Shown here piece by piece: positions 12,914-44,823 of a DNA stretch of 64,000 nucleotides. The stretch's first letter is position 1, and each line of letters opens with the position of its first letter. Both the position numbers and the translations under genes were made by a program. The notes below the pieces were generated by a model. It made no database searches and was not told where the DNA came from. It worked only from the letters and a program-made list of their open reading frames with translations. The stretch comes from Patescibacteria group bacterium (GTDB lineage Bacteria > Patescibacteriota > Patescibacteriia > UBA11705 > DATKZF01), in the NCBI GenBank assembly GCA_049319825.1, contig JBMORT010000002.1, positions 15,550 through 79,549 of the forward strand, in the 5' to 3' direction.

Positions 12914-13130
12914 TGTGGTTTGAAAATGCGGCAAGGGCATAAATAAAAGAAAAAAAGAAAAACGATATTTAGGCGGCAGGCAACGGGCAGCAGCCATAGC
13001 TTGTCGCGTTAGTCTTTGCCTGTGGCCTTTACCTTTTTTTACTTTTTAATTTCCTGTTTATCATCCGCTATATTTTAACGAAAATAGCGAAAAATGCAAG
13101 ATAAAAAATTAAATTCAATCGATTTATCAG

Positions 13131-14162
13131 TTATTTTCGGCGTTTTCTGACCGGCTTGGTTTCCGGGTAAAGCTGGTCGATGATCGCTCCGGCCACATCT
13201 CGCGGTCGACCGCTGTACGGCTGGTGATGAATGCTGATCATCGGGGAATCATTGACTTCGATAATGATATAATTTTTTTTATTGGGTTTGGCCGTCACAT
13301 CGGTGGTTAGGTAATCTATACCGCCAAAAGCTAGCCCGGGGATGGAACGAATCACTCTGACCGCCAGCTTTTTCACTTCCGGATGGATTTTATCGGTGAC
13401 GTCGTAGCTGTCCCCGCCGGTGGAGATATTGGAATTGGCGCGCAAAAAAACCTGCTCCCCGTTTTTGGGAATATAACTGGTGTCTTTATGCTGTTTTTGC
13501 AAATAAAGCTTAACGGCCTTATCGACTTTTATTTTTACCAGGCTTTTTTCATGGCTCAACCCGCGCCGGGGGTCTTGATTTTTTTCCTGAATGAGCTGTT
13601 TAATCGTTTTAACGCCATCACCGACCACGTTGGCCGGCACGCGCAGGGTCGCGGCCACGAATTTTTCTTTGAGCGCCAAAAGCCGGTATTCCTGTCCGAA
13701 AAACATCTTTTCCACCACGATTTTATGGAATCGGGTATCTTTGAATTCCTTGAGAACGTCTTTCACTTTTTTATCGGAATTCAAATCCACAAAGACCAAT
13801 TTGCCCTGAATGCCGCTCAGCGGCTTGATAACTACCGGATATTTTATCTGGTGGCAAAATTTCAAAACATCGCCGGTCTGATCATAGTTGAATATTTCAC
13901 CGGCAGCGACATTGATGCCGGCGCGCTTAAAAAAATACTTGGTCAACTGTTTGTTCTTCTGTATCCAATAAGCGATGCAATCGGTTTTGGAAGTCCGCTG
14001 TCCGACAATTATTTCCTGATGACCGCGATAATTCAATTCCAGCAAACTGGCTTTGGCCATCGGCCCGGTGGTAAAAATTTTTCTGACTTTAATGCCGCGA
14101 TCAAGCGCTTCTTTCGCCAGTAAATAAGTGCTCGATTGAAAAAATTGTTCCGGTTTGATCAT
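13131..14162 (-). CDS. ATP-grasp domain ligase (CphA/RimK-like)
   Basis: ATP-grasp signature including ANSNISTGG (cyanophycin synthetase/RimK-type) and VVIKPLSGIQG. Confidence 0.65.
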   Translation of the reverse strand: MIKPEQFFQSSTYLLAKEALDRGIKVRKIFTTGPMAKASLLELNYRGHQEIIVGQRTSKTDCIAYWIQKNKQLTKYFFKRAGINVAAGEIFNYDQTGDVLKFCHQIKYPVVIKPLSGIQGKLVFVDLNSDKKVKDVLKEFKDTRFHKIVVEKMFFGQEYRLLALKEKFVAATLRVPANVVGDGVKTIKQLIQEKNQDPRRGLSHEKSLVKIKVDKAVKLYLQKQHKDTSYIPKNGEQVFLRANSNISTGGDSYDVTDKIHPEVKKLAVRVIRSIPGLAFGGIDYLTTDVTAKPNKKNYIIIEVNDSPMISIHHQPYSGRPRDVAGAIIDQLYPETKPVRKRRK

Positions 14163-14163
14163 A

Positions 14164-15027
14164 TTATTTTGATTTTAACTTTTCTAAAAATTTAATGACG
14201 CGGGCGGCAATGTCAATGCCGGTGGCCCGCGTGAGCGCTCTGAATCCGGGACAGCGATTTACCTCCAGTATGTAAGGATGGCCATCTTGATCATACATTA
14301 AATCAACTCCGGCAATATCGGCATTTGACGCTTTCACCGCCTTAAGGGCCAGCGCTTTTTGCTTTGAGGTCAACACGTGCTTAGCGCTCCTGCCGGAAAG
14401 CGGCACTTGATGATGGCTCAGGTAGTCCAGAGAATACCGCTTGATTGAAGCCACGATTCGACCGTCAATGACAAAAATTCGATAATAATGATTTGATTTG
14501 ATGATCTTTTGGATAAAGAAATCATTGATATCGCGCTCAGTCAACAATTTAAGCAGCTGTGTTTTATTATCTTTTTTAAAAATATTTCGGCCATGCATCC
14601 CGCGCAGATCTTTGACCAAAACCGGAAAAGGCAGTTTAACGCCGCTTTTTTTAAATTCGCTCAAACTGGAGAAAAGCCAACTGTCGGCGCAGGGCAACCC
14701 GTGAAAGCTCAGCGCCGCGTAAGAGAACATTTTATCAACAACATACACTTTGCGGTAGAGCTCCCGATCGACGACTTCTTTTTTGCATCGTTTTAAGTAT
14801 TTGGCGATGGTGCGAGTTTTTTCCATGTGCGGATAAACGCCTCGGATCAGGGTGACGTCGAATTCGCGGATATCTTTTTTTCCCAACCTGACCGTAAATT
14901 TCTTATCCTTCAATACAAAATAAAAATTGATTATTGACGCCAGAGTGACCTGATGACGGCGAGCTTTGGCCGCCGCCACCAACCGGCGATTGGCGTAGGT
15001 GTTCGGTCCGATGATCAATATTTTCAT
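14164..15027 (-). CDS. RimK-family alpha-L-glutamate ligase-like ATP-grasp protein
   Basis: VLVKDLRGMHGRNIF, YRIFVIDGRIVASIKR and DIAGVDLMYDQDGHPYILEVNRCPGF are RimK-like ATP-grasp motifs. There is a 1-nt gap to the upstream gene. Confidence 0.7.
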   Translation of the reverse strand: MKILIIGPNTYANRRLVAAAKARRHQVTLASIINFYFVLKDKKFTVRLGKKDIREFDVTLIRGVYPHMEKTRTIAKYLKRCKKEVVDRELYRKVYVVDKMFSYAALSFHGLPCADSWLFSSLSEFKKSGVKLPFPVLVKDLRGMHGRNIFKKDNKTQLLKLLTERDINDFFIQKIIKSNHYYRIFVIDGRIVASIKRYSLDYLSHHQVPLSGRSAKHVLTSKQKALALKAVKASNADIAGVDLMYDQDGHPYILEVNRCPGFRALTRATGIDIAARVIKFLEKLKSK

Positions 15028-15057
15028 AATTGGGAAAGCAAATTTTAATTTATCCGC

Positions 15058-16452
15058 TCAACGCGACGGGTCAACTAAAAACTTCTTCAAATCTCTTCGT
15101 CCAATAATAATCGGATATTCCAATTCCTTGCGGCTAATGATCGACGCCCGGGAACTTATATCGACGCCGGACAACGTTATTTTAACCGGCACTTCAATGC
15201 GGTATGACGCGCCATGGCTGCTGTATGTTTTGGCGACGGCCACGATATCCGGATGTTTCTCCAATTCCTTCCATATTTTTTTTCGGCTTAATTCCTCGAC
15301 TTGCTCTCGAGTCAATTTTTCGGAAATATTGAATGTCTGAAAATAATCGATGGCGCTCTTAAATCCCAGCTCAATGGCCAATTCTTCATCGATTGAACTG
15401 ATGCCGGCGCCCGTGTCGATCTTGGCCTCGACTTCGATCGTTTTATCCTGGCCCTTTATTTTAACCGCTTCGATAATGCCGATCATCTGCTTGCCGGAAA
15501 TTTCCTCGATTTCCTGCTCCACTTCGCCGCCAAATAATTCTTTGCCGACTTTTATACCCCTGGCCATAGTTTTTATTTTCAAGCCTTGCAGTCGCTGCAG
15601 CCTCTCTTTGAGCGGCGATAGATTGGCGATCTGAATCGACAGTCCGGGATGGGCGTTTATTTCCAAAATTTGCGGCCCTTTTTCGCGATCAATGGCGACA
15701 TCGACGCCGATGTATCCCAAACCGCTGGCTTCTTGGGCGATAACCGCGTATTCCAAAATTTTATTCCAATAAGGAATTTTCAAGCCGCTCAGCGCAAACC
15801 GGGTTTCCGGCAAATATTCGATCAAACTGTTTTTTTGAATGGCGTGAGTGGTGATACCCGAAGCGATATCGATGCCCACTCCGATGCCGCCCATGTGCAG
15901 ATTGGCTTTGCCGCCGGAAACTTTGGTCGTCAGCCGCAACATGGCCATCACCGGCACTTTGTTGTAAACGATTACCCGAATATCGGGGATGCCTTTATAG
16001 GCGTAAAGTTTAAATGCCGGATGAATTTTAAGCCGCTCCTCAAAGAATGCCGAATCCGGGGCATGGCTCATGGAAAAATCTCCGTCCAAAATATTCAGCA
16101 CATGCTCTTTAATTTCCTCAAGGGTGATTTCTTTGTCGCGCGACATTATCCAGTTGCCGTTTCTTTTCCGGCCAAAAGTTACGATAATTCCTTCACCGCC
16201 CAAGCCGCGATTGGGTTTGAGCACGAAACTCTCCGGTAAAATATCCCAGTCGAAATTATAAAACTCCTGCCGGTCGCGAATAACGGCGATCAAATCGGCG
16301 GTCGGCAATCCGGCTTCGAACATCGCTTCTTTTGAGCGCAGCTTGTCATTGGCCAGTTTTATGGCCGAGCTGGGATTCGACGGTTTGACGAATTTCAAAT
16401 TTCGGGCGTTCATGCCCAAAATCCCTTTACTTTTTTTTAGAATCTGCAGCAT
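15058..16452 (-). CDS. ATP-grasp (alpha-L-glutamate ligase-related) protein fused to C-terminal retropepsin-like (DUF785) aspartyl protease domain
   Basis: N-terminal ATP-grasp region (GMNARNL...VLKPNRGLGGEGI). C-terminal domain has the KIDTGAGISSID (D-T-G-A) aspartic protease signature typical of the RimK-associated zinc-protease/retropepsin domain. Confidence 0.65.
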   Translation of the reverse strand: MLQILKKSKGILGMNARNLKFVKPSNPSSAIKLANDKLRSKEAMFEAGLPTADLIAVIRDRQEFYNFDWDILPESFVLKPNRGLGGEGIIVTFGRKRNGNWIMSRDKEITLEEIKEHVLNILDGDFSMSHAPDSAFFEERLKIHPAFKLYAYKGIPDIRVIVYNKVPVMAMLRLTTKVSGGKANLHMGGIGVGIDIASGITTHAIQKNSLIEYLPETRFALSGLKIPYWNKILEYAVIAQEASGLGYIGVDVAIDREKGPQILEINAHPGLSIQIANLSPLKERLQRLQGLKIKTMARGIKVGKELFGGEVEQEIEEISGKQMIGIIEAVKIKGQDKTIEVEAKIDTGAGISSIDEELAIELGFKSAIDYFQTFNISEKLTREQVEELSRKKIWKELEKHPDIVAVAKTYSSHGASYRIEVPVKITLSGVDISSRASIISRKELEYPIIIGRRDLKKFLVDPSR

Positions 16453-18010
16453 GCTTGATCACCTTTCTGAATCGAAAATATTCCGTCAGGCGGAGTCCGG
16501 CCCATTTTCCGAGGAATATATTGATCACAATACATAGTAAAATTATTTCCGGATACCCCAAAAGCAACGATTTCATTGTTTGCAAACTGGCCAGCCAATA
16601 ACAAAAACTGGATAAAATCAATGTCTCGATCGTCAATAAAATAGCGGGGCGCATCCCTCTCTCAATCTGAGCGGAAACGAACTTTTCAGATAACACGATC
16701 ATGATTAGAATGGGAAAAACGCTTAAGGTCATTAACGAAGTGTCTTTCATTAGGGCGCCGATGGCAAACAAAGTCATTGTCGCCAAACTGACGATGATTA
16801 AAATTAAGGCCATTCTCGGTAAATACAGCAAACCCAGTTTTCTGGCCAGTACCCGGCCGACACTGGCGATAATCAAAATCAGCGCGAAAATCAGCAGTCC
16901 ATAGACAATTCCGGTTCCCAAAAAAGACAAAGCGATAATTGTGGGCGTGTAAATGCCGAATGCTTTGATTCCGATAAACTGGCGGGTAAATGAAAGTATC
17001 GTGGCGATGATCGGCAGGATTAACAGAAGATAAATGCTGTTTAGCGGCACGCCGCGATTAACCATGTAGCTGATGCCGTAGGCCAAAAAATTCCACGGTT
17101 TCAGCTGACCGATTTCCCGCTGCGTATGAAGGCCGATCAATTGATATTGAACTCCTCCTTCTCCATAATTATTGAGGAGTGAATCCAAATTAATGAAGCT
17201 GACCGCCGAATTCAACCCTTCCTTTTCCGCCAGCAAAATAAATTGCGGTTCGATTAAATTGAACAAGCTCTGCGCCAGCCTGGCCGCGCCGGAGAATTTG
17301 TCATTGACGACGATGATGACTTTGTTGGAAAAACCGTAATCGGCCAGCGCGGTGCGACCGCCGGTAATGGTGGTGGCGCTGAGCGTCTGCGCGGCATTGA
17401 TCAAGGCGTTCAGCCCAATATTGCCTTCGGTCAGCACCACAATGTTTTTTGCCTGCTTGATATTTTCCTTGGATTCGATTATTTTCTGGCTGAGTTCATT
17501 TTCAACCACTATGTCCAAATCCTTTTTTTCATTTTTTATGTTAATGATTAAAATTCCTTGGCTTGAAGCTTGCCGGGCAAGCTCCTCAAGCCGCTGATTG
17601 TCCACCGAATAATCGGATATTAAAATGATCAAATCCTTATCGACGGACACGATGAATTCATCGGTTGATTGCTGGCCGCTCTGCCTATCCTGAACTGTCA
17701 AACTGGCTCGATAAATGCCGGGATTGCGGTAGGTATGAATAACCTCTTGGCCTGTTGCGCGGTTGCCGTCGCCGAAGTTCCAGATATATTCGACCGGGGC
17801 TCCTTTGGGAGCGCTCGAGCCGGCGGCGCTGAAAAAAATCTGGCGTTCGACCACGACGTTGCGGTCACCGCCGGAAACGGCGGTTAGCGGCACCTGCGGA
17901 ATTTCTTTTTGATCGGGTAGATTAGCCGCAATATTTTGCTGCGCGTTGGCGAAATTAAAAAATCCCAAACAAGCAATTGCGATTAGGATTAAAGCCGTGA
18001 CTTTTTTCAT
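16427..18010 (-). CDS. secreted PKD-domain protein fused to C-terminal 7-TM module (ATP-grasp-associated 7TM family)
   Basis: Signal peptide, then a PKD-like region (YIWNFGDGNRATGQEVIHTYRNPGIYRASLTVQD), then about 7 hydrophobic helices at the C-terminus. It overlaps the ATP-grasp gene by 26 nt. Confidence 0.65.
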   Translation of the reverse strand: MKKVTALILIAIACLGFFNFANAQQNIAANLPDQKEIPQVPLTAVSGGDRNVVVERQIFFSAAGSSAPKGAPVEYIWNFGDGNRATGQEVIHTYRNPGIYRASLTVQDRQSGQQSTDEFIVSVDKDLIILISDYSVDNQRLEELARQASSQGILIINIKNEKKDLDIVVENELSQKIIESKENIKQAKNIVVLTEGNIGLNALINAAQTLSATTITGGRTALADYGFSNKVIIVVNDKFSGAARLAQSLFNLIEPQFILLAEKEGLNSAVSFINLDSLLNNYGEGGVQYQLIGLHTQREIGQLKPWNFLAYGISYMVNRGVPLNSIYLLLILPIIATILSFTRQFIGIKAFGIYTPTIIALSFLGTGIVYGLLIFALILIIASVGRVLARKLGLLYLPRMALILIIVSLATMTLFAIGALMKDTSLMTLSVFPILIMIVLSEKFVSAQIERGMRPAILLTIETLILSSFCYWLASLQTMKSLLLGYPEIILLCIVINIFLGKWAGLRLTEYFRFRKVIKHAADSKKK

Positions 18011-19603: not shown

Positions 19604-21343
19604 TCAGTTGGCGAATACCTCGGGTCCCAGTTCTCGGACGGCGCTCAGCCGGACTTCGGCGGTTTGTAATTTATTCAATTGCAGCTGTCCCGCCGCCTCA
19701 ACCGGAGTTAACGAGAAGTTAAGTCCGCCATCATTTTTAAAAAACATTTCATCTTCAAAAGCGACGACCAATTCTTCGCTTATTTTTTGATCGTTTTTAT
19801 ATTGGCGCAGTAAAAAATAATTGCCGAACCAGCTGGCGAAAGCGTCACTCAATCTAATATTGATTAAATCTTCACCGGCTTGCGCGCTATCGGCGTCAGT
19901 GGTATACAATAAAAATTTGCCTTGGCTGAATTTCAAGCGCAAATCGTTTGCCGCGATGAATTTCTTTATATTGGCCAATCCGGTCGCGGAAAAACCTTCG
20001 GCTTGATAAAACCGTTCATGCAAAAGCAGCGGCGCCAATTCAGACTGATCAATGATCAGAAAATCAACAGCCGGCGGCTCGTATTTTTTTTGGGAAAATT
20101 GCTGGTGACCATCATAAATTTTTTCGAGTGAATAAATTTGGCGGCCGGAAGAGAGCGGTGCGTATAGCGCCGATGGCGCAACGCCAATCTTCGATGATTC
20201 AATCAGGCCGCTGATCCGGCCGACGCTGTCGCGCGCGGTCTGCTCGGCCGATTTTATGCCCCAAAAAGGACCCATGACGATCTGCAAATATATTAAAAGA
20301 ATAATGATCGTCGGCACGGCGATTTGCCGAAACATTTCCGCCACGCGATTATGGGATTTTCGGCTTTCGAATTCAGCCAAGGTTTTGATAACGGCGATAA
20401 ACCCCGGAATTAGCAGCGGTGCGCCATAGTGGATGTTAATGACGCCCGAGCCAAACGCCGCGGCCAATAACAAATAATAAAACGCGCCCATCAGATAATG
20501 GCGCGGGTTAAATAATGGAATAAAACCAAGCGGTAAAAAAATCTGTAACAATAATTCCAGCTGCTTGAAATTGAAAAAATGTGCGATTGCTTGTTGCCAA
20601 TCATGGCGCCATTGAAAATAAATCAAGAATTTGTTCGATTCGTTGTTAAAGAAGCGTATCAGCATCCAAGCGGCGAGCATCCATACAAGGCCGGCGGCAA
20701 AACACCATATTACCTGTTTATCCTTGATCGCTTTTTTTATTCCGTTTGCTCTAAACTGTTCATAAAATATGTAGGCACCCATTCCCCAAATAAACAAACC
20801 CATGTCTTCACGAACAACCAAGCAGAGAATGGTGAAAACAATAAATAATAAATTTTTCCTTGTTTCATAAAAATAAAAAAGCCAAAACCCGAAAAAAAAT
20901 AAAAACGGCAACCAGTGAAATTCGAATAAATTCATGCCGATGATAAAAGGATTGAACAAATACAGCGCGGCCGCCAACAAACTTTTTTTCGCGCTTAAAC
21001 GCCGCCGAGCGATCAAGTAGAGCGGCCATGCTGCCAGCCCGATAATGATGGTTTGCAAAAACAACAAAAACACCGGTGATGGCCAAAGGTGAAAAATCGG
21101 ATAAAAAATGAAAAACATCAATGAAAAATGGTCGGCAAAATAGGTGGCGCCCTGAATCGGCACGAACAATAAATTGCCATGATCAAGGCTGTTTAAAGCT
21201 TGAAAAAAAATGGCTAAATCGACGCAATTGTAATGGTAATTGAAATACTTAAACAAACAAACGCCAAAGACCGCGATAATATACAGGACAATCATGGCGG
21301 CCAAATAAAATCGACTGCTCATAAATTTATCTTCGCTTATCAT
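19604..21343 (-). CDS. DUF2079-like polytopic membrane protein
   Basis: N-terminal CVDLAIFFQALNSLDHGN...ADHFSLMFFIFYPIFHLWPSP...LQTIIIGLAAWPLY matches the DUF2079 pattern (DLgiFdQ...GdHfspil...Psp). Alternative start at 21322. Confidence 0.55.
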   Translation of the reverse strand: MISEDKFMSSRFYLAAMIVLYIIAVFGVCLFKYFNYHYNCVDLAIFFQALNSLDHGNLLFVPIQGATYFADHFSLMFFIFYPIFHLWPSPVFLLFLQTIIIGLAAWPLYLIARRRLSAKKSLLAAALYLFNPFIIGMNLFEFHWLPFLFFFGFWLFYFYETRKNLLFIVFTILCLVVREDMGLFIWGMGAYIFYEQFRANGIKKAIKDKQVIWCFAAGLVWMLAAWMLIRFFNNESNKFLIYFQWRHDWQQAIAHFFNFKQLELLLQIFLPLGFIPLFNPRHYLMGAFYYLLLAAAFGSGVINIHYGAPLLIPGFIAVIKTLAEFESRKSHNRVAEMFRQIAVPTIIILLIYLQIVMGPFWGIKSAEQTARDSVGRISGLIESSKIGVAPSALYAPLSSGRQIYSLEKIYDGHQQFSQKKYEPPAVDFLIIDQSELAPLLLHERFYQAEGFSATGLANIKKFIAANDLRLKFSQGKFLLYTTDADSAQAGEDLINIRLSDAFASWFGNYFLLRQYKNDQKISEELVVAFEDEMFFKNDGGLNFSLTPVEAAGQLQLNKLQTAEVRLSAVRELGPEVFAN

Positions 21344-21421
21344 TATAGCAAACCCCCCGAAAATTAATATAAAAATCGTCTGAGAATAAGACGATTTTTA
21401 ACGTATTGATGACGAAAAACT

Positions 21422-21811
21422 TTATCCTTGAACGGCGGTCAGCAGTTCGCCAACCACGTAATTGGTAATGGCATACGCCAGCAAAATGATTATCAAGCCG
21501 ATAATGCCGTTGACAATCCAGCTTTTGGCCTTTTTCGTTTGATCCTCATCGCCACCGGCGGTCATCCACAACCAGCCTCCGTAAATGATTACGATTAAAA
21601 GCACGACTCCCAAAAATCCCAGCACGATTTTGATGATGGTCCCAATGGTTGCCGGCAATGATTTGGTGGTGGCGAATTCCCCCAATCCAGTGCCCACTTC
21701 CCCCAATTGCCCTTGAATCTGCGACTGCGCCAGCGCGGGTAGTCCCATGCTTAGAGACAAAATGGTGATCATGATCACCGGCAAAAAAGTTCTGATTAAT
21801 TTTTTGCTCAT
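21422..21811 (-). CDS. VirB2/TrbC-like pilin family small membrane protein (paralog 1 of 6)
   Basis: Signal/TM, then the conserved core IIKIVLGFLGVVLLIVIIYGGWLWMTAGGDEDQTKKAKSWIVNGIIGLIIILLAYAITNYV shared with five downstream paralogs. Start at ATG 21811; the ORF runs to 21871. Confidence 0.6.
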   Translation of the reverse strand: MSKKLIRTFLPVIMITILSLSMGLPALAQSQIQGQLGEVGTGLGEFATTKSLPATIGTIIKIVLGFLGVVLLIVIIYGGWLWMTAGGDEDQTKKAKSWIVNGIIGLIIILLAYAITNYVVGELLTAVQG

Positions 21812-21876
21812 AATTTCCAAGATGTTAATTATTGACAAGTATATTATAAACTTTTTTAAAACCTGATGCAAACGAT

Positions 21877-22251
21877 TTATCCCGCCGCCGTCGAAATTTG
21901 CTGGACCACGTAACTGGTTATGGCGTAGGCCATCAGCGTGATGGCCAATCCGATCATACCGTTAATTATTCTCGCTTTGGCTTTGCGCACCTGATCCTCG
22001 TCGCCGCCGGCCGTCATCCATAAAAATCCGGCATAAACCAAAATTATCAACAGTACCACGCCCAATGCGCTCAGAAAAAAATAAATGACCGTTCCGATTA
22101 TCACCGTCGGCTCCTGGGATTTCAGCCCGGCCCGTCCGGCGGTTTCATCCAGCCCGGTGCTGACGGCTTGACCGATCAGCGGCGCCGTCACCGCTGAAAT
22201 GATGACCGCCAACAGGGAAATAATCAATGTTTTTTTTAAAAATTTGCTCAT
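21877..22251 (-). CDS. VirB2/TrbC-like pilin family small membrane protein (paralog 2)
   Basis: Core GFLWMTAGGDEDQVRKAKARIINGMIGLAITLMAYAITSYV. Confidence 0.6.
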   Translation of the reverse strand: MSKFLKKTLIISLLAVIISAVTAPLIGQAVSTGLDETAGRAGLKSQEPTVIIGTVIYFFLSALGVVLLIILVYAGFLWMTAGGDEDQVRKAKARIINGMIGLAITLMAYAITSYVVQQISTAAG

Positions 22252-22256
22252 ATTTA

Positions 22257-22598
22257 TTACTGAAGAGGAATTAACACCCGGGTCATCACATAGGATAATA
22301 TCGCATATGACGACAAAATGATTGCCAGCCCGATAATGCCGTTAAATATATAATTTCGACCGCGCCGAACCTGTTCTTCTTCGCCGCCGGCCGTCATCCA
22401 CAAAAAACCTCCGTAAATGACCACGACCAGTAAAGCCACGCCGACAAAACCCAAAATATATTCCAAAATATTGCCGATCAGTACCGGTAAATTTTCTTGC
22501 CGGCCGACACCGGCTTCTTTGGCCGCGGTTTCCAACCCCTGTTCAACCTGAACCGCCGCCAATCGGGCCGAACCTAAAATATGTTTATATATGTCCAT
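22257..22598 (-). CDS. VirB2/TrbC-like pilin family small membrane protein (paralog 3)
   Basis: Core GGFLWMTAGGEEEQVRRGRNYIFNGIIGLAIILSSYAILSYV. Confidence 0.6.
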   Translation of the reverse strand: MDIYKHILGSARLAAVQVEQGLETAAKEAGVGRQENLPVLIGNILEYILGFVGVALLVVVIYGGFLWMTAGGEEEQVRRGRNYIFNGIIGLAIILSSYAILSYVMTRVLIPLQ

Positions 22599-22686
22599 AG
22601 TCGCTGAATGAAATCTCCCCGCGAAAAAATTTCACGGAGAAATTTCAAGGGCAGAGTACCCAGCTGGCATCACTCTGCCCAAAAAA

Positions 22687-23079
22687 TTAATCGTTACCGC
22701 CGCCTTCAACGGTAGCAGAAATCAGCGACTCGATGACAAATGTGGTAATGGCGTAAGCGGCCAAGATTATGGCCAATCCAATAATGCCGGAAATAAGCCA
22801 TTTTTTAGCTTCACCGACTTTTTCCTCGCTACCACCAGCGGTCATCCACTTGAATCCGCCGATCAGCATGATGATAATCGCCACCACGCCTAAAAATCCC
22901 AGAACGGTTTTGATGATCGAACCGATCACCGCTCTAAGATCGCGGGTTGAATATCCGACTTCAGACTGAATCGGCTCCAGCCCGACATCGATTTGAGCGG
23001 CGGCGATTAAAGGCATAACCGCCAAAAACAACGCGCCCAAAACCATCAACACCGGAATAAACTTTTGAATTTTGTTCAT
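22687..23079 (-). CDS. VirB2/TrbC-like pilin family small membrane protein (paralog 4)
   Basis: Core GGFKWMTAGGSEEKVGEAKKWLISGIIGLAIILAAYAITTFV. Confidence 0.6.
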   Translation of the reverse strand: MNKIQKFIPVLMVLGALFLAVMPLIAAAQIDVGLEPIQSEVGYSTRDLRAVIGSIIKTVLGFLGVVAIIIMLIGGFKWMTAGGSEEKVGEAKKWLISGIIGLAIILAAYAITTFVIESLISATVEGGGND

Positions 23080-23121
23080 AGTTTTTTTTTGTTTTATTAA
23101 TTATCGACCTTTTATAAATTA

Positions 23122-23958
23122 TTATTGAAAAGCTTCACGGCACAGAGCGCGGCAGGATCTCAGCCGGGACTGGGCCGCGGTTTCGCACTCGGCCACGGAT
23201 TTGTACCCGGCGCTTTCAGCCAGCGGCAGATTTTTGCAATCCAATTGTATTTTTTCATCGTACTTATTCTGACAATCAGCCAAACAAGCGGAAGTCTGCT
23301 GCTGCTGATCCTGAATGACTTGAGATCTATTGGTTATTCCCGAAATCACCGCGGAAACAATGGCGTAGCTGCTAAATATCACCACCAAGCCGAGCACCGC
23401 CCAAATCATCGTGCCTCTGGCTTTTTTCAATTTATCTTCGCTGCCGCCGGAAGTCAGCCACAGCACGCCGCCGTAGATGAATAATACCAGCGCCAATGAT
23501 CCGATAACTCCCAAAAATACCTTCAAGATATTACCGACCAGCGTGGGCATGCTGCTTTGGATCAATTGACCCTTGATTTCCGGATTCCCCAGAAATCGGT
23601 CAACCGCCGACTGCGCTTCACCAAGGCCGACTGCCTGTTCGACGGCCGGCGCCGCGGTCGTGGGCGCGGGTGGAGTGGCAGTACAAGTCAAATTGGCTCC
23701 GCCGGCGAGCGATTCCATACCAAGCAGATCCAAAATTTCAGCCTCGCTGCAAGACCCGACCGGCACGTTTCCTTTTAATTCGCAAACGCAATCAGTTCCA
23801 CTCCAGACGCAACCAACGGTTTGCGTTTGGTTGCACGCGGCCTCGGAAAGCTCAACCGTTCCAGAACAAGTGCACTCGACTTCTTGAGCCAACGAACTAA
23901 TTGGAAATATTAAAACGACAAATATCGCTGTAAAAATAAAAAGTATTTTCATACTCAC
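23122..23958 (-). CDS. VirB2/TrbC-like pilin family protein with Cys-rich N- and C-terminal extensions (paralog 5)
   Basis: Core GGVLWLTSGGSEDKLKKARGTMIWAVLGLVVIFSSYAIVSAV, flanked by a Cys-rich N-terminal region (CTCSGTVELSEAACNQTQTVGCVWSGTDCVC) and a Cys-rich C-terminal tail. Confidence 0.55.
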   Translation of the reverse strand: MSMKILFIFTAIFVVLIFPISSLAQEVECTCSGTVELSEAACNQTQTVGCVWSGTDCVCELKGNVPVGSCSEAEILDLLGMESLAGGANLTCTATPPAPTTAAPAVEQAVGLGEAQSAVDRFLGNPEIKGQLIQSSMPTLVGNILKVFLGVIGSLALVLFIYGGVLWLTSGGSEDKLKKARGTMIWAVLGLVVIFSSYAIVSAVISGITNRSQVIQDQQQQTSACLADCQNKYDEKIQLDCKNLPLAESAGYKSVAECETAAQSRLRSCRALCREAFQ

Positions 23959-24302
23959 CCCTGCAATGCCTGCAGGACGAATTTAATAATGACGCCGGCG
24001 CCAAGGATCAGCGCCAGGCCGATGGCCGAACTGGTTAGAATTTTGGTGGCCTGCTGAACCCGGCTTTCATTGCCGCCGGAAAATATGTATAAAAATCCTC
24101 CGATCACAAACATTAATAAAGCGATGGAGCCGCTGATGCCCAAAATAATGGCGGCGATATTGCCCAAAACCGTTTCAATCGAACTGAGCGAGCAGTCTTT
24201 CGCGTCGCCCTTGCATGCAGCCGGCACTAAGGTAGGCAACGCGGCGCTGGCCGGCAGAGCTATCAATAAGGATAATATCATCGCGTAAAGATATTTTCTC
24301 AT
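23955..24302 (-). CDS. VirB2/TrbC-like pilin family small membrane protein (paralog 6, divergent)
   Basis: GGFLYIFSGGNESRVQQATKILTSSAIGLALILGAGVII. The core is divergent but recognisable. It overlaps paralog 5 by 4 nt. Confidence 0.5.
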   Translation of the reverse strand: MRKYLYAMILSLLIALPASAALPTLVPAACKGDAKDCSLSSIETVLGNIAAIILGISGSIALLMFVIGGFLYIFSGGNESRVQQATKILTSSAIGLALILGAGVIIKFVLQALQG

Positions 24303-24307
24303 AAAAA

Positions 24308-25690
24308 TTATTGTCGCCAGGTTAACCTGATGCGCTGGACAGCCAGCTTGACGGCATCACTTAGCTTTGTCCCCTCCAGCACGGAATTCACCATGTCTTT
24401 AAATATTGATTCAGCCGCTTCGGAATCTTTGCCGCGATACCAGCTTTTAGCGGTTAATACCTGGTCGGCGAACACATCCAAGTCCGGATCCTGAAGCTGC
24501 TTATTGATCAAGGCGCGCAGGGCGGTCGGACGGTTGGCCGAGGCCAAATATTTTTCCGCTTCGGTCTGTGAGGTGGCAAAATATATAAAATTCCAGGCAT
24601 GAGAAACGTTCTTTGATTTTTTTGAAACCGTCTCCACCCAATAATTGGCGTAGTTGGTTCTATTTTTTTCATCAACCTGCGGCATGCTGGCGATCTCATA
24701 ATTCAGCTTTGGCGCTCTGGAATTTATCACCGGTATATGATAGGAATATCCGAAAAATATGGCTGCTTGGCCGGAAATGAACGCGTCCAGAGAATTAGAC
24801 GAATCCTGATTCCAGGTATAAACGCCTTTATCAATCATCGAGAAACTGGTATAAAAATCCAAGGCTTCCAATCCGGGGGCCGAGGTCAAGCCTGATCCGG
24901 CGGGAATTTCATCAAATGTGACATTGCCTGATTTTGTCGCCATGGCCGTGCCGTTTTGCATCATCAATAAAGACAAGATGTCGAAAAATCTGGTCACGTT
25001 ATCGGCCGCTCCCATCGCCGCGCCCGAAATCAAGATATTGCCGTCAGTGTCCTTGGTGGTTAATCTTTGAACAGCGGAAATAAAGTCATTCCAATTTCTC
25101 GGCGGCTGGGGAATGTTGGCATTATTGAACAAATCACGGTTATAAAACATCACCAGGCTGTCCAAGTATAGCGGCAAACCGAAAATCCGATCTTGTGTTG
25201 TCGTGTCGGAGCTGTCAGGCCACACCACGTCTTCAGCCACCACTTCTGGAAATATCGCGCTCACATCCTTTACCCCCAGCGGGACAATGTCTTCGGTGAC
25301 GGTGGTTTCTTTGCTTCTGAGGCCGGTTTCAACCACTTTCCTCGACAACCTCATACGATTCGGCAGCGGAGTGATTTTAGGTAAATATTCGTTCACCCAG
25401 GTATTGTGAATTTGAAAAATATCCGGGCCGCGATCCTCGGCAAAAGCTTCAAGCAGTTCTTTTTCATACTCCTCGAATCTGAATTTTCGATAATTAATGG
25501 TAACATTGGGATATTTCAGCCGATAATCGCTGATAATGGTCTGAATGTCGTCCGGTTCATGCCACACGCCCCAATATTCCAAAGTTACCGGCGCGACGCT
25601 CGCCTGCTGGCCGCCGCCGCAGGTCAGACCGGTCGTCAATAAAAACACCAGCATCAGAGCGGACGAAAATATTTTAATTATTTTTTTCAT
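24308..25690 (-). CDS. ABC transporter extracellular solute-binding lipoprotein (family 1, sugar-type)
   Basis: Lipoprotein signal MKKIIKIFSSALMLVFLLTTGLTCGGG and an SBP_bac_1-like body. Start at ATG 25690. Confidence 0.7.
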   Translation of the reverse strand: MKKIIKIFSSALMLVFLLTTGLTCGGGQQASVAPVTLEYWGVWHEPDDIQTIISDYRLKYPNVTINYRKFRFEEYEKELLEAFAEDRGPDIFQIHNTWVNEYLPKITPLPNRMRLSRKVVETGLRSKETTVTEDIVPLGVKDVSAIFPEVVAEDVVWPDSSDTTTQDRIFGLPLYLDSLVMFYNRDLFNNANIPQPPRNWNDFISAVQRLTTKDTDGNILISGAAMGAADNVTRFFDILSLLMMQNGTAMATKSGNVTFDEIPAGSGLTSAPGLEALDFYTSFSMIDKGVYTWNQDSSNSLDAFISGQAAIFFGYSYHIPVINSRAPKLNYEIASMPQVDEKNRTNYANYWVETVSKKSKNVSHAWNFIYFATSQTEAEKYLASANRPTALRALINKQLQDPDLDVFADQVLTAKSWYRGKDSEAAESIFKDMVNSVLEGTKLSDAVKLAVQRIRLTWRQ

Positions 25691-25742: not shown

Positions 25743-26615
25743 TTAATCCACCACTGTTTTTAAATAATCCAAAAATTCTTCTCGCAAATTTTTATTCTTT
25801 AATCCAAAATGGACATTGGCTCTCAAATATCCGTGCTTATTGCCGCAGTCATAATATTCACCTTCAAATTCCTGAGCGAAGCCGGGCTCTTTTTTCAGCA
25901 ATTTATTAAAACCGTCAGTGAACCAAATTTCACCGGACTTGCCCATCTTTACCTTTTCCAATTCATCAAAAATTTCCGGAGAGAGAATATAGCGCATGCC
26001 TAAAATCGCCAAGTTCGACGGAGCCTTTTCAATATCGGGCTTTTCCACCAAACCTTTTATTTTGTGAATATTTCCTTCGGAAGAAATCGGGTCGGCGATG
26101 CCATAACGGTTGACTATGTCGCGCTCAACTTGTTTGACGCCTACGTAATTTCCCTTTCTTTTATAATAACTGTCGAGTAATTGCTTGGTCACCGGCACTT
26201 TACTTTCGATTATGCTGTCGCCATCCGATAAAACGAACGGCTCGTCGCCAATCACCTCCCTGGCCATCAGTACCGCATGGCCGTTGCCGAGGGGCTTATT
26301 CTGCCTGACATAAATAAATTTGGCCATGTTGGATATATTGCGCACCATTTTTAAAATATCTTCTTTTCCCTTACCTTCAAGCAAGTGTTCGAGTTCAAAA
26401 GATGGATCAAAATGATCCTCGATGGCGCGCTTGGTTCTGCCGGTCACAAAAACAATCTCTTTGATTCCCGAAGCGACCAATTCCTCCACGATGTATTGAA
26501 TCACCGGTTTATCGACCACCGTTAACATTTCCTTGGGTTGGGCAATGGTCGCCGGCAAAAAGCGCGTGCCAAAACCGGCCGCGATAATGACCGCCTTTTG
26601 TATTTCTTTCGGCAT
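25743..26615 (-). CDS. galU: UTP--glucose-1-phosphate uridylyltransferase
   Basis: AVIIAAGFGTRFLPATIAQPKEMLTVVDKPVIQYIVEE is the nucleotidyltransferase signature. Start at ATG 26615. Confidence 0.85.
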   Translation of the reverse strand: MPKEIQKAVIIAAGFGTRFLPATIAQPKEMLTVVDKPVIQYIVEELVASGIKEIVFVTGRTKRAIEDHFDPSFELEHLLEGKGKEDILKMVRNISNMAKFIYVRQNKPLGNGHAVLMAREVIGDEPFVLSDGDSIIESKVPVTKQLLDSYYKRKGNYVGVKQVERDIVNRYGIADPISSEGNIHKIKGLVEKPDIEKAPSNLAILGMRYILSPEIFDELEKVKMGKSGEIWFTDGFNKLLKKEPGFAQEFEGEYYDCGNKHGYLRANVHFGLKNKNLREEFLDYLKTVVD

Positions 26616-26829
26616 AAATATAAAAATGGCAATACGCTGTATTAAATTTATTTTACCATATTTTGACGCGCTGGTATAAAAAGTTATAAACATCAATAAA
26701 AATAAAAAGTGATATTGAAAAATAAAATAAAAAAAATAACAATAGCGCGCCCTTGAACGATAAAATTGTTATCTGGTGGTTATGATTTTTTCAATGCTTA
26801 AAAACTTGACATAAATTGATTTTTTTGTC

Positions 26830-29302: not shown

Positions 29303-32300
29303 ATGATAAAAATAAAAATCTTCATATCAATCCTGGCAATATTTCTATTGTCGGCCTTAGGTTTTTCCAACAGCATTCCCGTCGCCTCGGCAATATCCGG
29401 CACCAATGTCCAGCCAGGCAATCTGGTGCAGTCGAATGTCACCTCGGTAACAGTGACTTTCACCAGCGCCGTCACCTTACCGGCTGATGGAAAAGTGAAA
29501 GTCGTTTTCCCTGCCGGCTTTAATGTCAGCGGCGCCACTACCGGCCGTTGCACCAGTATGAATGGCGGTTTCTCCACCTCTATATCCGCTCAAACCGTTA
29601 CGATTACGCGTGACAACACCGGCTCTGCCAGACTGGCCGGGGCCCAATCTTGTACTATTGATAATATCGCCAACCCTTCACTGGCCGGCTCCACCGGAAC
29701 GTACGCCATCGGTCTTTATCAAAATAACGATACTTTGCTCGAGCAAGACTTGGCCGTATCTGCGGATACGATAATCGCTCCGGGCGCTTTGGCTGCCACT
29801 AATGTCGAACCTGAAAATCTGATTGAACTGACTCGATCACGATACGCCGTTTCTTTCACTACCGCGAACCCTGTCACCGCCGACGGCCAGATTAGCGTGA
29901 CTTTCCCTGCGGGATTCAATGTTTCAGCGGCGAACGGAGGTACTTGCGCTTCAATGAACGGCGGTTTTTCCACTTCGGTCAACGGCCAGACCGTCACTTT
30001 GATCCGAGACGGCTTGGGCACGGTTCAAACACCGGCGGCAGAAACATGCGTCATCGATGGCATTGCCGCCCCGGCCGCCGGATTGTCCGGCACATACACT
30101 ATCAGAACGAAAGATCGATCCGGCAACAGTACCGATAGCGATCCGGCGGTGTCGAGCGACATGTATATTGCCGCGCCGGCCTTGGTCGTCACCAATGTCC
30201 AGCCGGCCTCCCTTGTCGCCGGCGCCACGTCGACAGTCACGATTTCCTTCACGACAGTAGTTTCCACTCCGATCAGCGCCAAGGTGCGAGTGACATTTCC
30301 GGCAGGTTTCGACCTCTCTGCCGCGGGTACGGCGAGCTGCTCTTCCATGCCCGGCACAGAATCTTCGGCCATTGCCGGACAAGTGTTGACGATTACCAGG
30401 GCGGCCACCGCCACCGAACCAGCCGCCGCGGAAACTTGCATCATACCCACCGTTAAAAACCCTCCTGTTTCCGGATCAACCGGGACATATTCCATTGAAA
30501 TAATAGACGATCAAGCTTCGCCGGCTGTCGTTTCCTCGGATACGGCCGTTTCCGCCGACACGATCACTCCCGGCACACTGACCGCCACCAATGTCCAGCC
30601 TGAAAATCTGGTGGTCGGCATCACCAGCGAACAAACTGTCACTTTTAACACGACCAATCCGATTCCGGCCAATGGGAAAATTTCAGTGGATTTTCCGGCA
30701 GGATTTAATGTCAGCGCCGCCAATGCTGGCACGTGCGCGGTCATGGACGGAACTTTTTCTACTTCTGTTGCCGGTCAAACCGTGACCATCAGCAGAAACG
30801 GCTCACTCGCGGTATCTTCGACCAGCGCCATTACCTGCATCATCAAAGACATTACGGCTCCGGCAGTTCCCGGAGCGGGCGGCGTCTATGCGATCAGAAC
30901 CGAAGACTCTCTGGGAAACACCATTGATTCGGCCGCGCCGACCAGCGATACTTTTATTGCCAGTCCGTCATTGGGTGGCACAAACGTACAACCAACGAGT
31001 CTCGTTGCTTCCATCACCAGTGACAATGCGATTTCATTCAACACCTCTCAATATATTCCGGCAGAGGGCAAAATAAAAATAACCTTTGGGGCCGGGTTTA
31101 ATGTTTCCGGCGCTTATGGCGGTGAATGCAGCGGCTTCGATGGCACGCTCATCACTTCTGTCGCGGGGCAAACAGTTATTCTTTCTCGCGGAGGGACTTC
31201 AACTACCGTCGTCTCCGGTGCCAAAACATGTCGCCTTTATGGAATAAAAAATCAGTCGATAACTGGATCCACCGGCACTTATTCGATTTTTATCACTGAT
31301 AAAACGGATGCGACCGTTGCCTCAAATTCTTCAGTCGCTGCCGATACGATCATCAATTCCGGAACTTTGACCGCTGCCGATGTCCAGCCGGGATCTCTTG
31401 TCGCTGGGCATGTGGGAACTAATTTGATAACTTTTTCCGCGGTTGGTGGCATTCCGACCGGCGGGAAAATAAAAATCACTTTCCCGTCCGGCTTCGATGT
31501 CAGCGCCGCCGCTGACAGCTCCTGCGTCGGGCTGACGGGAACCGTCTCGACCAGCGTGTCGGGGCAAACCGTAACGCTCAGCCGAGACGCGTCGAGTGCC
31601 GGACAAGCCAGCGGCACCGTGTCTTGCTCTATCGACAATATTAAAAATCCCACCGTATCCGGATCCACCGGAACATATCTGATCACAACCGCCGATCCGA
31701 CTGACACGACTATTTCCACCGCCTCACCGACCGCGGACACCATCACCGCTGGTGCGCTTAGCTCGGCGGATGTCCAGCCGGATACGACGCTGATATCAGC
31801 CGCCAATACCGTTTCGGTCAATTTTAACGGCACCAATCCGTTGCCCGGAGACGGTAAAATCGTCATCGTCTTTCCCGCCGGGTATGATCTGACGGGAGTC
31901 GGCACCGCCGATATGTCTTGCACCGGCTTAGCCGGCACTCTCAGCGCATCGACAGCCGGCAATACCCTCACCGCGGCACGATCCGGCGGTTCGGCGACAA
32001 GCGGCGGCGATGCTTTTTCCTGTGCCATAGCCAATATCATCAATCCGACAACGGCCGGATCTGCCGGCACATATACGCTGCGTACCACCAATTCTGTCGA
32101 TGCGATAATCGATGAAAATAGTTCTGTTGCCGCCGATACTTTCGGCGCGGCCGGAACGCTGACCAATACCAATGTCGAGCCGGAAAGCACAATCATTAAA
32201 CGAACGGGAACCGCGACAATTTCCTTTACCTCTGCTTTGGGTTTGCCGCGAGACGGTAAAATAAGAATTACTTTTCCGGCCGGATTCCTGATCACCGGCG

Positions 32301-41947: not shown

Positions 41948-42307
41948 TTATTCGAGCATTCTCATTCTCTTTAATAAATATTCGACCTGTCGATCCAAAT
42001 CCTGATAATCTTTATCGACAATTCCTTTCTGGGCAATAAAGAGCAGGTCAAAGCCGGGCTTAATCTTTTTCAGGCGCAGCCTAATTATTTCACGCAGCCG
42101 GCGCTTAATTAAATTTCTTTTAGTGGCTCGCTTATCAACTTTTGTGGAAATCACAAAAGCAAACCGGCTGATATCGGAATTGTTTCGCAAACTTTTAACT
42201 ATTACATTGTCGCTATTGGCCGAATAACCCCGATTTTTTCTAAAAGCCGGACCGAAGAATTTGTCAAAATCCCGCTTCTGGGTTATGCGGTGGAGTTTTT
42301 TTAGCAT
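41948..42307 (-). CDS. rnpA: ribonuclease P protein component
   Basis: Basic protein with RnpA motif [26 protein letters not shown]. Sits immediately downstream of rpmH. Confidence 0.8.
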
Positions 42308-42477
42308 ATTTGAAAGGAGGCTTAAGGGGGCATTAGAAGGCTTTAGGTGTATAGAAGTAAATGGGTAAAGAAGGCAATTTAAATCTTTTATTTCGCCCTC
42401 TCGACCCCTGTCAGCCTTCTTAAGCCTTTTTGAGCCTTCTTAATATTATATTAAACCATATCCGCGAAAAGAAAAAG

Positions 42478-42500
42478 GCCACTTTCGTGGTCTCTTTTAA
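42478..42500 (-). terminator. attenuator/terminator hairpin between rpmH and rnpA
   Basis: On the minus strand, GACCACgaaaGTGGCC followed by a T-run. Confidence 0.35.
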
Positions 42501-42526
42501 ACTGATATCTTTTTTCTGGTTCTTTT

Positions 42527-42664
42527 TTAAACGGATAACTTTTTCCTTCCCCGAGTTCTCCTTCTCTTTAGCACCTTTTTTCCATTTTTGGTGCTCATTC
42601 TCTTTCTAAATCCATGAGTTCGGCTTCTTTTTCTCTTCTTTGGCTGATATGTTCTTTTGGGCAT
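42527..42664 (-). CDS. rpmH: 50S ribosomal protein L34
   Basis: 45-aa ORF below the track cutoff: [45 protein letters not shown], the canonical L34 sequence. Confidence 0.8.
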
Positions 42665-42839
42665 ATGTTTTTCAAAATATTTAATTATAGAATTACTCTA
42701 CCAAAAGCCGGGGGATTTGTCAATGAGTTGGGCGTAAAGCATGAAGCATGGAAAATGAAACAAGCGATACTAATATTAAAACCTAAATCGTATCCGGGGC
42801 ATCCGGGGTATCTGGATTAGACATACGTAGAATCCGGAT

Positions 42840-43147
42840 TATAAATTTCGTAGTATTAATAAACAGCCGCAGTTTCCTCATTAAAAAGTCATCTGTACAA
42901 TCTGTACGCTCATCTGTAATCTTGTATACTCAAATCCGTAACCATTGCAATATTTATTATTTTCTATACAATGAATTTGAGATATTCACATCCAATCCAC
43001 ATGTTAACAACCAAATTCGCTGGTGAAAAAATTTTATCCACAAAAGAATTATGATATAATGATCTCGACAAAAATTTCCCTATATTTCCACCCTCTTTTA
43101 TCATTACATTAAAAAAATAAAAATAAATAATTCCTCACTTTTCCCCT
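42840..43147. promoter_or_regulatory. candidate oriC segment / dnaA promoter region with DnaA-box cluster
   Basis: Perfect DnaA box TTATCCACA at 43032..43040. Near-boxes ATATTCACA (42982) and CAATCCACA (42993). Four (A)TCTGTA repeats at 42895..42935. AT-rich. Lies between divergent rpmH and dnaA. Confidence 0.5.
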
Positions 43148-44545: not shown

Positions 44546-44823
44546 ACTGTTGGTAAGTGGCATAATGACTTGTGAAAATATTGAGTGGAACAGATAAAAA
44601 AACGTGTATAATTTCGATGAAAAATAAATTGATATAAAATTGGTATTTTAATGCACCGCTTCCCTCACATTATTCACTCATTCAAAGCACCGCTTATTAA
44701 CAATCGTTTTTTTTCAAACAGGTTATAAAATAAAGATCAAAAACATTTTTCCACATAATCCACATCTATATTATTAATTATTATTAAATTTTTTAAATAT
44801 ATATTTTAAATAAATTAGAAAAT
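44546..44823. promoter_or_regulatory. dnaA-dnaN intergenic region with DnaA-box-like repeats and AT-rich unwinding-element candidate
   Basis: TTTTCCACA and AATCCACAT at about 44749..44768, TTATTCACT at about 44690, then a tract of more than 50 nt that is over 90% A+T. Confidence 0.45.

Follow-up and report, generated by a model that had tools for sequence, protein, structure and literature searches.

Tandem arrays of genes encoding VirB2-like pilins of type IV secretion systems (T4SSs) are already known in Patescibacteria. From 3,035 Patescibacteria genomes searched with the PF04956 and PF18895 families, Quinonero-Coronel et al. (2025; PMC12102498) reported VirB2-like pilins in 1,948 VirB4-positive assemblies, near virB4 in 1,135 of the 1,948 and away from it in about 40%. 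They also described 441 arrays, each of 2-11 genes and distributed over 383 assemblies; within-array identity was 25% on average and 54% at most. Antigenic variation or adaptation to different hosts was proposed in that study, by analogy with Bartonella and Anaplasma. Here, we analysed a comparable array of six genes, named A to F in transcription order, at positions 21422-24302 on the minus strand of contig JBMORT010000002.1 (assembly GCA_049319825.1), numbered within a window of 64 kb that is the whole stretch of DNA analysed. This locus is very probably a conserved operon of VirB2-superfamily pilin-like subunits. With a probability of about 0.6, we read its products as two-helix subunits, exported by Sec, from which a T4SS encoded elsewhere would build a pilus or conduit. 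As tandem pilin arrays have themselves been published, what is new here is the pairing of the gene encoding pilin A with that of a sugar-binding substrate-binding protein (SBP), and the heterogeneity of the array (A, B and C-F).

In Candidatus Southlakia epibionticum, a series of predicted pilin genes inside the T4SS locus is essential (Wang et al. 2023; PMC10633639). A 2025 review describes this array as six VirB2-like pilins of conserved structure but divergent sequence and speculates on a pilus or a conduit. Genes with PF18895 have moreover been published among the highest-expressed genes of unknown function in Patescibacteria enrichment cultures, and this domain dominates freshwater-specific structure clusters. 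In the one species of Patescibacteria tested, the T4SS is essential.

The array of the window resembles the published Patescibacteria arrays in its phylum, in its protein families (PF18895/PF04956), in its tandem arrangement within the range of 2-11 genes, in its chromosomal location, often near the origin, and in the frequent separation of such pilin genes from virB4. The identity between its members (30-52%) can be compared with the published mean and maximum given above. The array of Ca. Southlakia epibionticum ML1 lies inside a T4SS cluster, whereas no T4SS gene is found within 10 kb in the window and in about 80 related loci. In addition, an SBP gene, with an A-type pilin dedicated to it, stands at the head of the window array. 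With VirB2, TrbC and TraA of diderm T4SSs, the window proteins share a small size, a signal or leader, two hydrophobic helices and a short charged loop, as well as PF04956 matches below threshold in B, C and D. They differ from them by a monoderm host, by the lack of adjacent VirB3-B11 genes, by six co-operonic paralogs instead of one major pilin, by a best PF04956 score of 26.4 bits for a threshold of 27.9, and in that neither sequence nor fold searches retrieved a solved VirB2 or TraA. The Mbov_0395/MMCAP2_0565 family (NF045849) of Mycoplasma integrative and conjugative elements (ICEs) is matched almost end to end by pilin F and shares a monoderm-type T4SS context. However, five of the six window pilins (19-37 bits) fall below its cut-off, and the window has no mobile-element context. 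In Mycoplasma, the NF045849-type protein is encoded by a single gene within an ICE that bears VirB4 and a coupling protein.

Six pilin-like genes in one probable operon

The earlier note, made from the sequence alone, had announced six consecutive minus-strand genes, and these are indeed present as back-to-back open reading frames (ORFs): pilin A at 23955-24302 (115 aa), B at 23122-23958 (278 aa), C at 22687-23079 (130 aa), D at 22257-22598 (113 aa), E at 21877-22251 (124 aa) and F at 21422-21871 (149 aa from a TTG codon). The true start of pilin F is almost certainly the ATG at 21811, giving the protein of 129 aa found in NCBI and Logan and identical to MFZ5364641.1. The NCBI start of B is at 23952 (276 aa). 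An exact look-up of the 115-aa form of pilin A found nothing on file, the start called for this gene in the databases being M8 (108 aa). The array and the SBP correspond to NCBI proteins MFZ5364641 to MFZ5364647, from a "Patescibacteria group bacterium" metagenome-assembled genome (MAG), in agreement with the origin in Patescibacteria (ultra-small bacteria also known as CPR) suggested in the note. The names already given to these proteins are "pilin", "Mbov_0395 family pilin-like conjugal transfer protein" (the NF045849 family name) and "ABC transporter substrate-binding protein"; F carries the second and B the plain "pilin". An independent Logan assembly contains the identical locus sequence (L001 among our related loci, which are numbered with the prefix L).

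All six proteins pass the PF18895 model (T4SS_pilin; 71 positions, gathering threshold 26.6 bits), with E values from 6e-12 to 8e-10 and scores of 39.1-46.0 bits (A 46.0, B 40.8, C 39.1, D 39.7, E 40.9, F 42.2), i.e. 12-19 bits above the cut-off for every one of them. The alignments run from model position 2, 3 or 7 to position 71 of 71. With PF04956 (TrbC/VirB2), no protein reaches 27.9 bits: C scores 26.4, B 18.8 and D 17.5, and A, E and F have no match. Many homologs of these pilins have precomputed Pfam matches to PF04956. With NF045849 (cut-off 40 bits), F passes with 42.0 bits over model positions 9-78 of 80, while C (37.3), E (31.1), D (30.1), B (27.6) and A (19.3) remain below. The assignment to a VirB2/TrbC-like family therefore stands, carried by the T4SS_pilin model for all six proteins and by NF045849 for F; the TrbC/VirB2 model, also put forward in the earlier note, stays just below threshold. 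The array also corresponds to the definition used in PMC12102498 (at least two PF18895/PF04956 genes, in tandem, with low identity, in Patescibacteria), with six genes at 30-52% identity.

The WMTAGG motif described for the whole array is present in C-F; it is approximate in B (WLTSGG) and replaced in A (YIFSGG). The corresponding coding pattern was counted five times in the window, for 0.2 expected by chance. A hidden Markov model (HMM) of the pilin core, run over the six frames of the 64 kb, matched these six ORFs only.

Could these proteins be generic transmembrane hairpins misassigned to the pilin family, or the genes an artefact of assembly duplication? Fold searches returned generic helical hairpins only, with no solved VirB2 or TraA, and a PDB sequence search with the pilin profile gave only chance matches (TolR, ATP synthase b; E >0.5). 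There are also weak side matches to DUF898 and DctQ, which reflect hydrophobicity. However, a two-helix hairpin matches any coiled-coil hairpin, so that searches against solved structures, by fold or by sequence, did not discriminate, and family membership is consequently established by profile HMMs. On that ground, each of the six proteins independently exceeds the curated cut-off of PF18895, and the loop motif and glycines are kept across 96 homologs. An assembly duplication was rejected because the copies are only 30-52% identical as proteins, with DNA cores at 63-73% identity and no exact repeat longer than 14 nt; the genes are also found in the independent Logan assembly and in other metagenomes. 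We consider this explanation, in both its forms, the most improbable of all those discussed here.

The propilin architecture (signal or leader, two hydrophobic helices and a polar loop) is found in A, B, C, E and F. Each has an N-terminal signal peptide with an AxA-type cleavage site and an exposed segment of 17-110 residues, followed by two long hydrophobic helices separated by a short charged loop (e.g. TAGGDEDQxKKAK), and a tail that is short or absent in most of them. Pilin D has the canonical hairpin with two hydrophobic segments only and no signal peptide; an in-frame stop lies 36 nt 5' of its ATG. Its L002 ortholog also lacks a signal peptide, and its L008 ortholog is longer (133 aa). 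An AlphaFold2 (AF2) model of pilin F, computed from the 96-sequence alignment, is a hairpin of two helices of 33 and 40 residues (52-84 and 89-128), with a predicted local distance difference test (pLDDT) score above 90.

The six proteins form three subunit classes: A, a subfamily linked to the SBP; B, long and Cys-rich at both ends; and C-F, which are canonical. In pilin A, the signal peptide is followed by an exposed N-segment with two Cys (C30, C37) and by the two-helix hairpin with its YIFSGG loop. Pilin B shows, in order, a signal peptide, a CxC motif directly after it, a Cys-rich and beta-rich ectodomain, a Pro/Thr/Ala linker, the hairpin and a C-terminal tail. The 8 N-terminal and 6 C-terminal Cys counted in the earlier note were found, the N-terminal ones being spread over residues 27-90 (about 64 residues) and not confined to 40. 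The C-tail is helical, with C223-x3-C227, C239, C256 and C267-x3-C271. In the AF2 model of B (pLDDT 74 overall), the C-tail folds back as a packed helix pair; the hairpin and C-tail helices reach 85-95, and the ectodomain 57-73. Since both ends are Cys-rich, both termini of B are most likely outside the cell and the loop in the cytoplasm, which is the topology of VirB2/TraA propilins. The linker of B (residues ~91-106) is Pro/Thr/Ala-rich, TATPPAPTTAAPAVEQ, and genes encoding GT2, Wzy_C and flippase proteins are found near the array in several loci. Together with the DUF2079 neighbour described below, these features may hint at O-glycosylation of the pilins, which is speculation.

The spacing strongly suggests that the genes from the SBP to pilin F are co-transcribed. 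The gene order is (GalU-like)-SBP lipoprotein-A-B-C-[hairpin]-D-E-F-terminator, and the successive gaps are 52 nt between the GalU-like and SBP genes, 5 nt between the SBP stop codon and the ATG of pilin A, 2 nt (A-B), 42 nt (B-C), 88 nt (C-D), 5 nt (D-E), 65 nt (E-F) and 78 nt between F and the DUF2079 gene, all these genes being on the minus strand. The GalU-like nucleotidyl-transferase gene (25743..26696; PF00483, E 2e-27) may be the first gene of the transcription unit. It is also directly upstream of the SBP gene in 28 related loci and in L004, L006, L007 and L088. The gap between C and D contains an inverted repeat at 22641..22688 (minus strand), GGGCAGAGT-N13-ACTCTGCCC. This stem-loop may be an attenuator or an RNA-processing site, and could set different expression levels for A-C and D-F. 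Directly after pilin F, a hairpin with a 12-bp stem and a T-run (21370..21400, minus strand) matches the consensus of intrinsic terminators and is probably the end of the operon. The next gene downstream encodes a DUF2079 polytopic membrane protein (19604..21343, minus strand; PF09852, E 4e-41). A DUF2079 gene also follows the array in L002, L074 and L088, and is nearby in L004 and L007. In two of these loci, four conserved minus-strand genes without Pfam match (~200, 300, 505 and 535 aa) lie between the array and the DUF2079 gene (L004, 13219-18137; L007, 12993-17897); in L088, only the two large ones (533 and 500 aa) are present, after DUF2079 (13013-16122). The window has none of them.

Age and stability of the array

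From the high copy number and diversification of the six genes, the earlier note had proposed antigenic or cell-surface variation. In metagenome contigs related to the window (L002/L003 and L088), the array again counts six pilin genes, whose order and lengths correspond to those of the window, between the same SBP and DUF2079 neighbours; the closest species-representative genome (L008) also has six. Orthology position by position was computed for L002: for every gene, the best match is the gene at the same position, with protein identities of 79% (A), 43% (B), 80% (C), 55% (D), 57% (E) and 70% (F), for 30-52% between paralogs. Synonymous sites being saturated between these orthologs, we used the proportions of synonymous (pS) and nonsynonymous (pN) differences and region-wise identity in place of a dN/dS hot-spot map. 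As pS is saturated (0.73-0.86) while pN is 0.12-0.39, the duplications are ancient and the copies under purifying selection.

The hairpin cores are the most conserved region of the proteins (C 91%, A 79-85%, F 65-86%, B 59-64%, D/E 56-65%), and the exposed N-segments are less conserved. Pilin C is the most conserved member of the array: its core shares 91% identity with the ortholog of L002 and likewise with that of L008. Strong variation in length and sequence is confined to the exposed ectodomain of B: long Cys-rich pilins are found at the second position in L002, L004, L006, L007, L008 and L088, with 244-551 aa. In the array, no shared DNA tract longer than 14 nt, no silent or truncated cassette and no invertible element was found, and all copies are complete genes.

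An antigenic or phase variation system, in which the paralogs would be surface variants expressed singly or shuffled by gene conversion, is very improbable in the light of these results, and largely refuted. The presence of several diverged copies, the divergence of the exposed N-segments beyond that of the cores and the hypervariable ectodomain of B would be expected from such a system, and the virB2 paralogs of Bartonella and Anaplasma, several diverged genes in tandem, are the analogy drawn in PMC12102498. In contrast to these, the paralogs of the window are ancient, orthologous by position to those of L002, under purifying selection and without recombination tracts. The order of the six genes is shared with L002/L003 and L088, and the closely spaced genes form one operon, which has a single terminator. 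Positional orthology, saturated pS and the lack of shared tracts or cassettes therefore exclude recent amplification or variation by gene conversion, and the claim of antigenic variation is not retained. A cassette mechanism in particular was rejected, with no cassettes and DNA cores at 63-73% identity. The pattern points instead to six subunits with distinct, maintained roles.

A sugar-binding lipoprotein gene paired with that of the first pilin

The gene upstream of pilin A (24308..25690, minus strand) encodes a lipoprotein of 460 aa with an SBP_bac_1 domain (PF01547, E 6e-27), of the CUT1 sugar-binding type (MFZ5364647.1, "ABC transporter substrate-binding protein"). Its PDB relatives (E values down to 4e-17) belong to CUT1 ABC importers, in which they bind maltose, trehalose or oligosaccharides. 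The lipobox Cys24 is invariant in the alignment of homologs, as are many aromatic residues. A profile search of the contigs of species-representative genomes with the SBP alignment gave 507 relatives, from which the best 80 were taken with 10-kb flanks; the best match is 67% identical, the genome of the window not being one of these representatives. The relatives include Falkowbacteria, Uhrbacteria, Buchananbacteria and other Patescibacteria.

Loci were taken as informative if their sequence continues for at least 450 nt beyond the SBP stop codon (n = 73); those that could be classified or named belong to the GTDB class ABY1. In all 73, a pilin ORF on the same strand begins within 300 nt of the SBP stop codon (median gap about 10 nt). 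The pilins at this first position constitute a separate orthologous subfamily: their best match outside their locus is another first-position pilin in 79 cases out of 79, for 0 out of 245 among the other pilins. The surrounding genes are less constant. Upstream of the SBP gene, we found ComM (34 loci), GalU (28), SMC (8) or another gene (9), and downstream of the first pilin a RodZ-like helix-turn-helix protein (44), another pilin (24) or a methyltransferase (3). Because the genes vary on either side, the pairing of the SBP with pilin A exceeds general synteny. Among the 43 loci with at least 8 kb of downstream sequence, 16 have a contiguous array of 4-11 pilins, 12 a single SBP-linked pilin plus an array 2-7 kb further, and 15 a single pilin only. 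In L004, L006 and L007, whose SBPs are 43-47% identical to that of the window, the order is nucleotidyl-transferase, SBP and 6-7 pilins, with a gap of 2-35 nt between the SBP and pilin genes. Two further loci depart from this arrangement. In L090 (7972-15848), a six-pilin array is accompanied by a GalU-SBP pair 3.2 kb downstream on the opposite strand; adjacency was apparently broken by an inversion, with the neighbourhood kept. In L089, from the Parcubacteria group, a lone pilin is found without SBP.

Neither in the window nor among the recurrent neighbour families of the ~80 loci (10 kb) was an ABC permease or ATPase found (BPD_transp, ABC_tran). A canonical CUT1 ABC sugar importer was thus rejected, though the SBP is clearly a homolog of the CUT1 type. 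No mention of an SBP gene beside pilin genes was found in the searched literature, which does not cover all journals, and such a linkage is absent from the text of PMC12102498.

SBPs with ties to T4SSs or to pilin-type assembly are known in other settings. PrgZ of pCF10 and ChvE of Agrobacterium feed signals to T4SS regulation, and in the archaeal bindosome SBPs are assembled by a pilin-like machinery. The common point with the locus studied here is an extracytoplasmic SBP linked genetically or functionally to such a system. PrgZ binds peptides and is of the Opp type, ChvE has no linkage to virB2, and the pilin-like signals of the bindosome are of the type IV pilin class. To our knowledge, in none of the three does a CUT1 sugar SBP gene stand directly beside a VirB2-like gene. 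A tentative proposal, of fairly low probability, is that the SBP lipoprotein and the A-type pilin are an undescribed, obligatorily linked two-gene module of ABY1, in which a VirB2-like subunit would physically couple a sugar receptor either to a pilus or conduit of the T4SS type or, with no T4SS involved, to the membrane. The B-F array would then be an optional extension of this core.

The earlier note had seen no T4SS machinery within 10 kb of the array, and this observation extends to the whole window: Pfam scans of essentially every ORF of at least 110 aa in the 64 kb found no VirB4, VirD4, VirB6, VirB11 or relaxase. In the ~80 related loci, no VirB4 or coupling protein was found within 10 kb, the large P-loop ORFs being SMC, ComM, FtsK, UvrA and FtsH only. 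We then looked at Table S1 of PMC12102498, which lists seven genomes carrying the SBP-pilin module (GCA_004297205.1 and the sources of L019, L022, L028, L056, L076 and L084), all of class ABY1. All seven are VirB4-positive, which is weakly consistent with a distal T4SS, the background in PMC12102498 being about 80%.

An explanation centred on the SBP and independent of any T4SS has to be weighed here. The A-type hairpin, and by extension the array, would be the membrane partner of the SBP (an oligomeric anchor, a channel or a signal transducer), replacing an ABC permease for the uptake or sensing of host glycans. The constant adjacency of SBP and A between variable flanks, the lack of ABC permease, ATPase and VirB4 genes, the 15 loci out of 43 with the SBP-linked pilin only, and the strong conservation of the SBP with its many invariant aromatic residues all agree with it. 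Nevertheless, the protein family was defined on T4SS pilin-like proteins, the homologous array of Saccharibacteria lies inside a T4SS locus and is essential, and VirB4 is present in 7/7 checkable genomes carrying the module. Moreover, we know of no precedent for a two-helix hairpin as the partner of an SBP. We therefore regard this explanation as rather unlikely, slightly below the tentative module proposed above.

Proposed assembly, genomic setting and meaning of the array

Our reading of the array as part of a pilus or conduit draws on the six PF18895 passes, the propilin architecture, the operon packing, the positional orthology, the coupling to the SBP, the VirB4-positive relatives, the published separation of pilin genes from virB4 in about 40% of assemblies, the Southlakia precedent and the high expression of PF18895 genes in enrichment cultures. 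The subunits would be exported by Sec and then inserted in the membrane as hairpins with both termini outside, the Cys-rich domains at the ends of B being disulfide-bonded outside the cell. A monoderm-type T4SS (MPF-FATA-like), encoded elsewhere, would extract the subunits and polymerise them into a heteromeric pilus or an envelope-spanning conduit. C-F, and especially C with its 91%-conserved core, would be the structural subunits, and the role of B would be that of a minor or adhesive subunit, surface-decorated and rich in disulfides. Pilin A would serve as a specialised subunit, produced along with the surface lipoprotein that binds sugars, and might link the capture or sensing of host glycans to the apparatus.

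Several points weigh against this reading. For no VirB2-like protein of Patescibacteria has filament formation been reported in the searched literature. The partner T4SS of this organism is assumed, with none of its genes in the 64 kb, and the seven VirB4-positive relatives are weak evidence given the high background. PF04956 is passed by none of the six proteins, pilin D has no signal peptide, and the sequence and fold searches against solved structures recovered neither VirB2 nor TraA. Finally, the roles given to A, B and C-F are deduced from conservation patterns only.

The hairpins might also remain in the cytoplasmic membrane as channel or assembly parts of a T4SS, as accessory subunits and without any filament. 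The best NCBIfam match, NF045849, is a small ICE protein of the wall-less Mycoplasma, the helices are highly hydrophobic and of considerable length (33 and 40 residues in the AF2 model), and conjugative T4SSs of monoderms are generally pilus-free (PMC12102498, PMC10633639, 2025 review). We judge this unlikely, more so than a T4SS-independent partner of the SBP: 5/6 of the proteins have cleavable signal peptides, as in VirB2/TraA propilins, the large Cys-rich extracytoplasmic domains of B fit surface exposure, and six diverged paralogs would suit a heteromeric polymer better than a single channel site.

The array of the window is surrounded by ordinary chromosomal genes, as identified with Pfam. 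These include genes for DNA and chromosome maintenance (SMC, YebC, RuvC, RuvB, and DnaA/DnaN at 43.1-46.0 kb), RNA processing (RNase P protein, RNase J, RNase III, NusB) and the envelope (PBP1A, Wzy_C paralogs, a flippase, M23 peptidases), as well as an ATP-grasp/7TM-transglutaminase cluster. As the neighbours are housekeeping genes, a mobile-element or ICE context was rejected for the array. The genes rnpA (minus strand), dnaA and dnaN (both plus strand) are grouped at 41948-45954, and the cumulative GC skew has its minimum near 44 kb, close to dnaA. The replication origin is probably in this region. The pilin operon is located 19-22 kb to the left of dnaA, at some 20 kb from the likely origin, and its orientation follows that of the replication fork.

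Some other features of the window were observed in passing. An ORF for an IS110-family transposase (46175-47500, minus strand) lies in a GC-rich island (0.56) directly after dnaN, overlapped by a plus-strand ORF of 455 aa without Pfam match. A tRNA-Gly(gcc) gene is found between two tRNA-Leu(taa) genes at 49571-50471, which resembles a local tRNA duplication. An ORF of 1,385 aa (29303-33460, plus strand), also GC-rich (0.56), has a C-terminal PG_binding_1 as its sole recognisable domain and may encode a large surface protein associated with the cell wall. The cluster mentioned above has four minus-strand genes (13131-18010) encoding a 7TM-transglutaminase/PKD membrane protein, an ATPgrasp_ST-Zn-protease-like fusion, a RimK-like ligase and a further ATP-grasp protein. 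It looks like a peptide-ligase or modification system, and its first two genes are also found downstream of the pilin array of L088. With regard to the records themselves, many of the species-representative MAGs bearing the locus (L008-L087) carry the title "uncultured Gammaproteobacteria bacterium" (binchicken assemblies), another that of "Candidatus Nanoarchaeia archaeon", and P0044 is named "Candidatus Bipolaricaulota" by NCBI. For a locus clearly of Patescibacteria type, such names are probably placeholders or wrong assignments.

That pilin arrays exist was already published, and on this point the locus contributes little. What it adds is, first, that in the related genomes examined (the named ones being ABY1) the arrays are systematically unlinked from T4SS genes; second, that they consist of stable, functionally distinct subunit classes and not of variable copies; and third, that one pilin class is always co-encoded with a sugar-binding lipoprotein. 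The part that merits attention is this last one: in 73 out of 73 informative loci, and at a distance from T4SS genes, a binding lipoprotein of the CUT1 type is accompanied by a VirB2-like subfamily of its own. Should the linkage of the SBP with pilin A stem from a coupling, physical or functional, the SBP ligand would give an experimental handle on what the apparatus recognises or transports. The recognition or capture of host oligosaccharides would then be built into the apparatus that these host-dependent bacteria use for attachment or for drawing material from their hosts.

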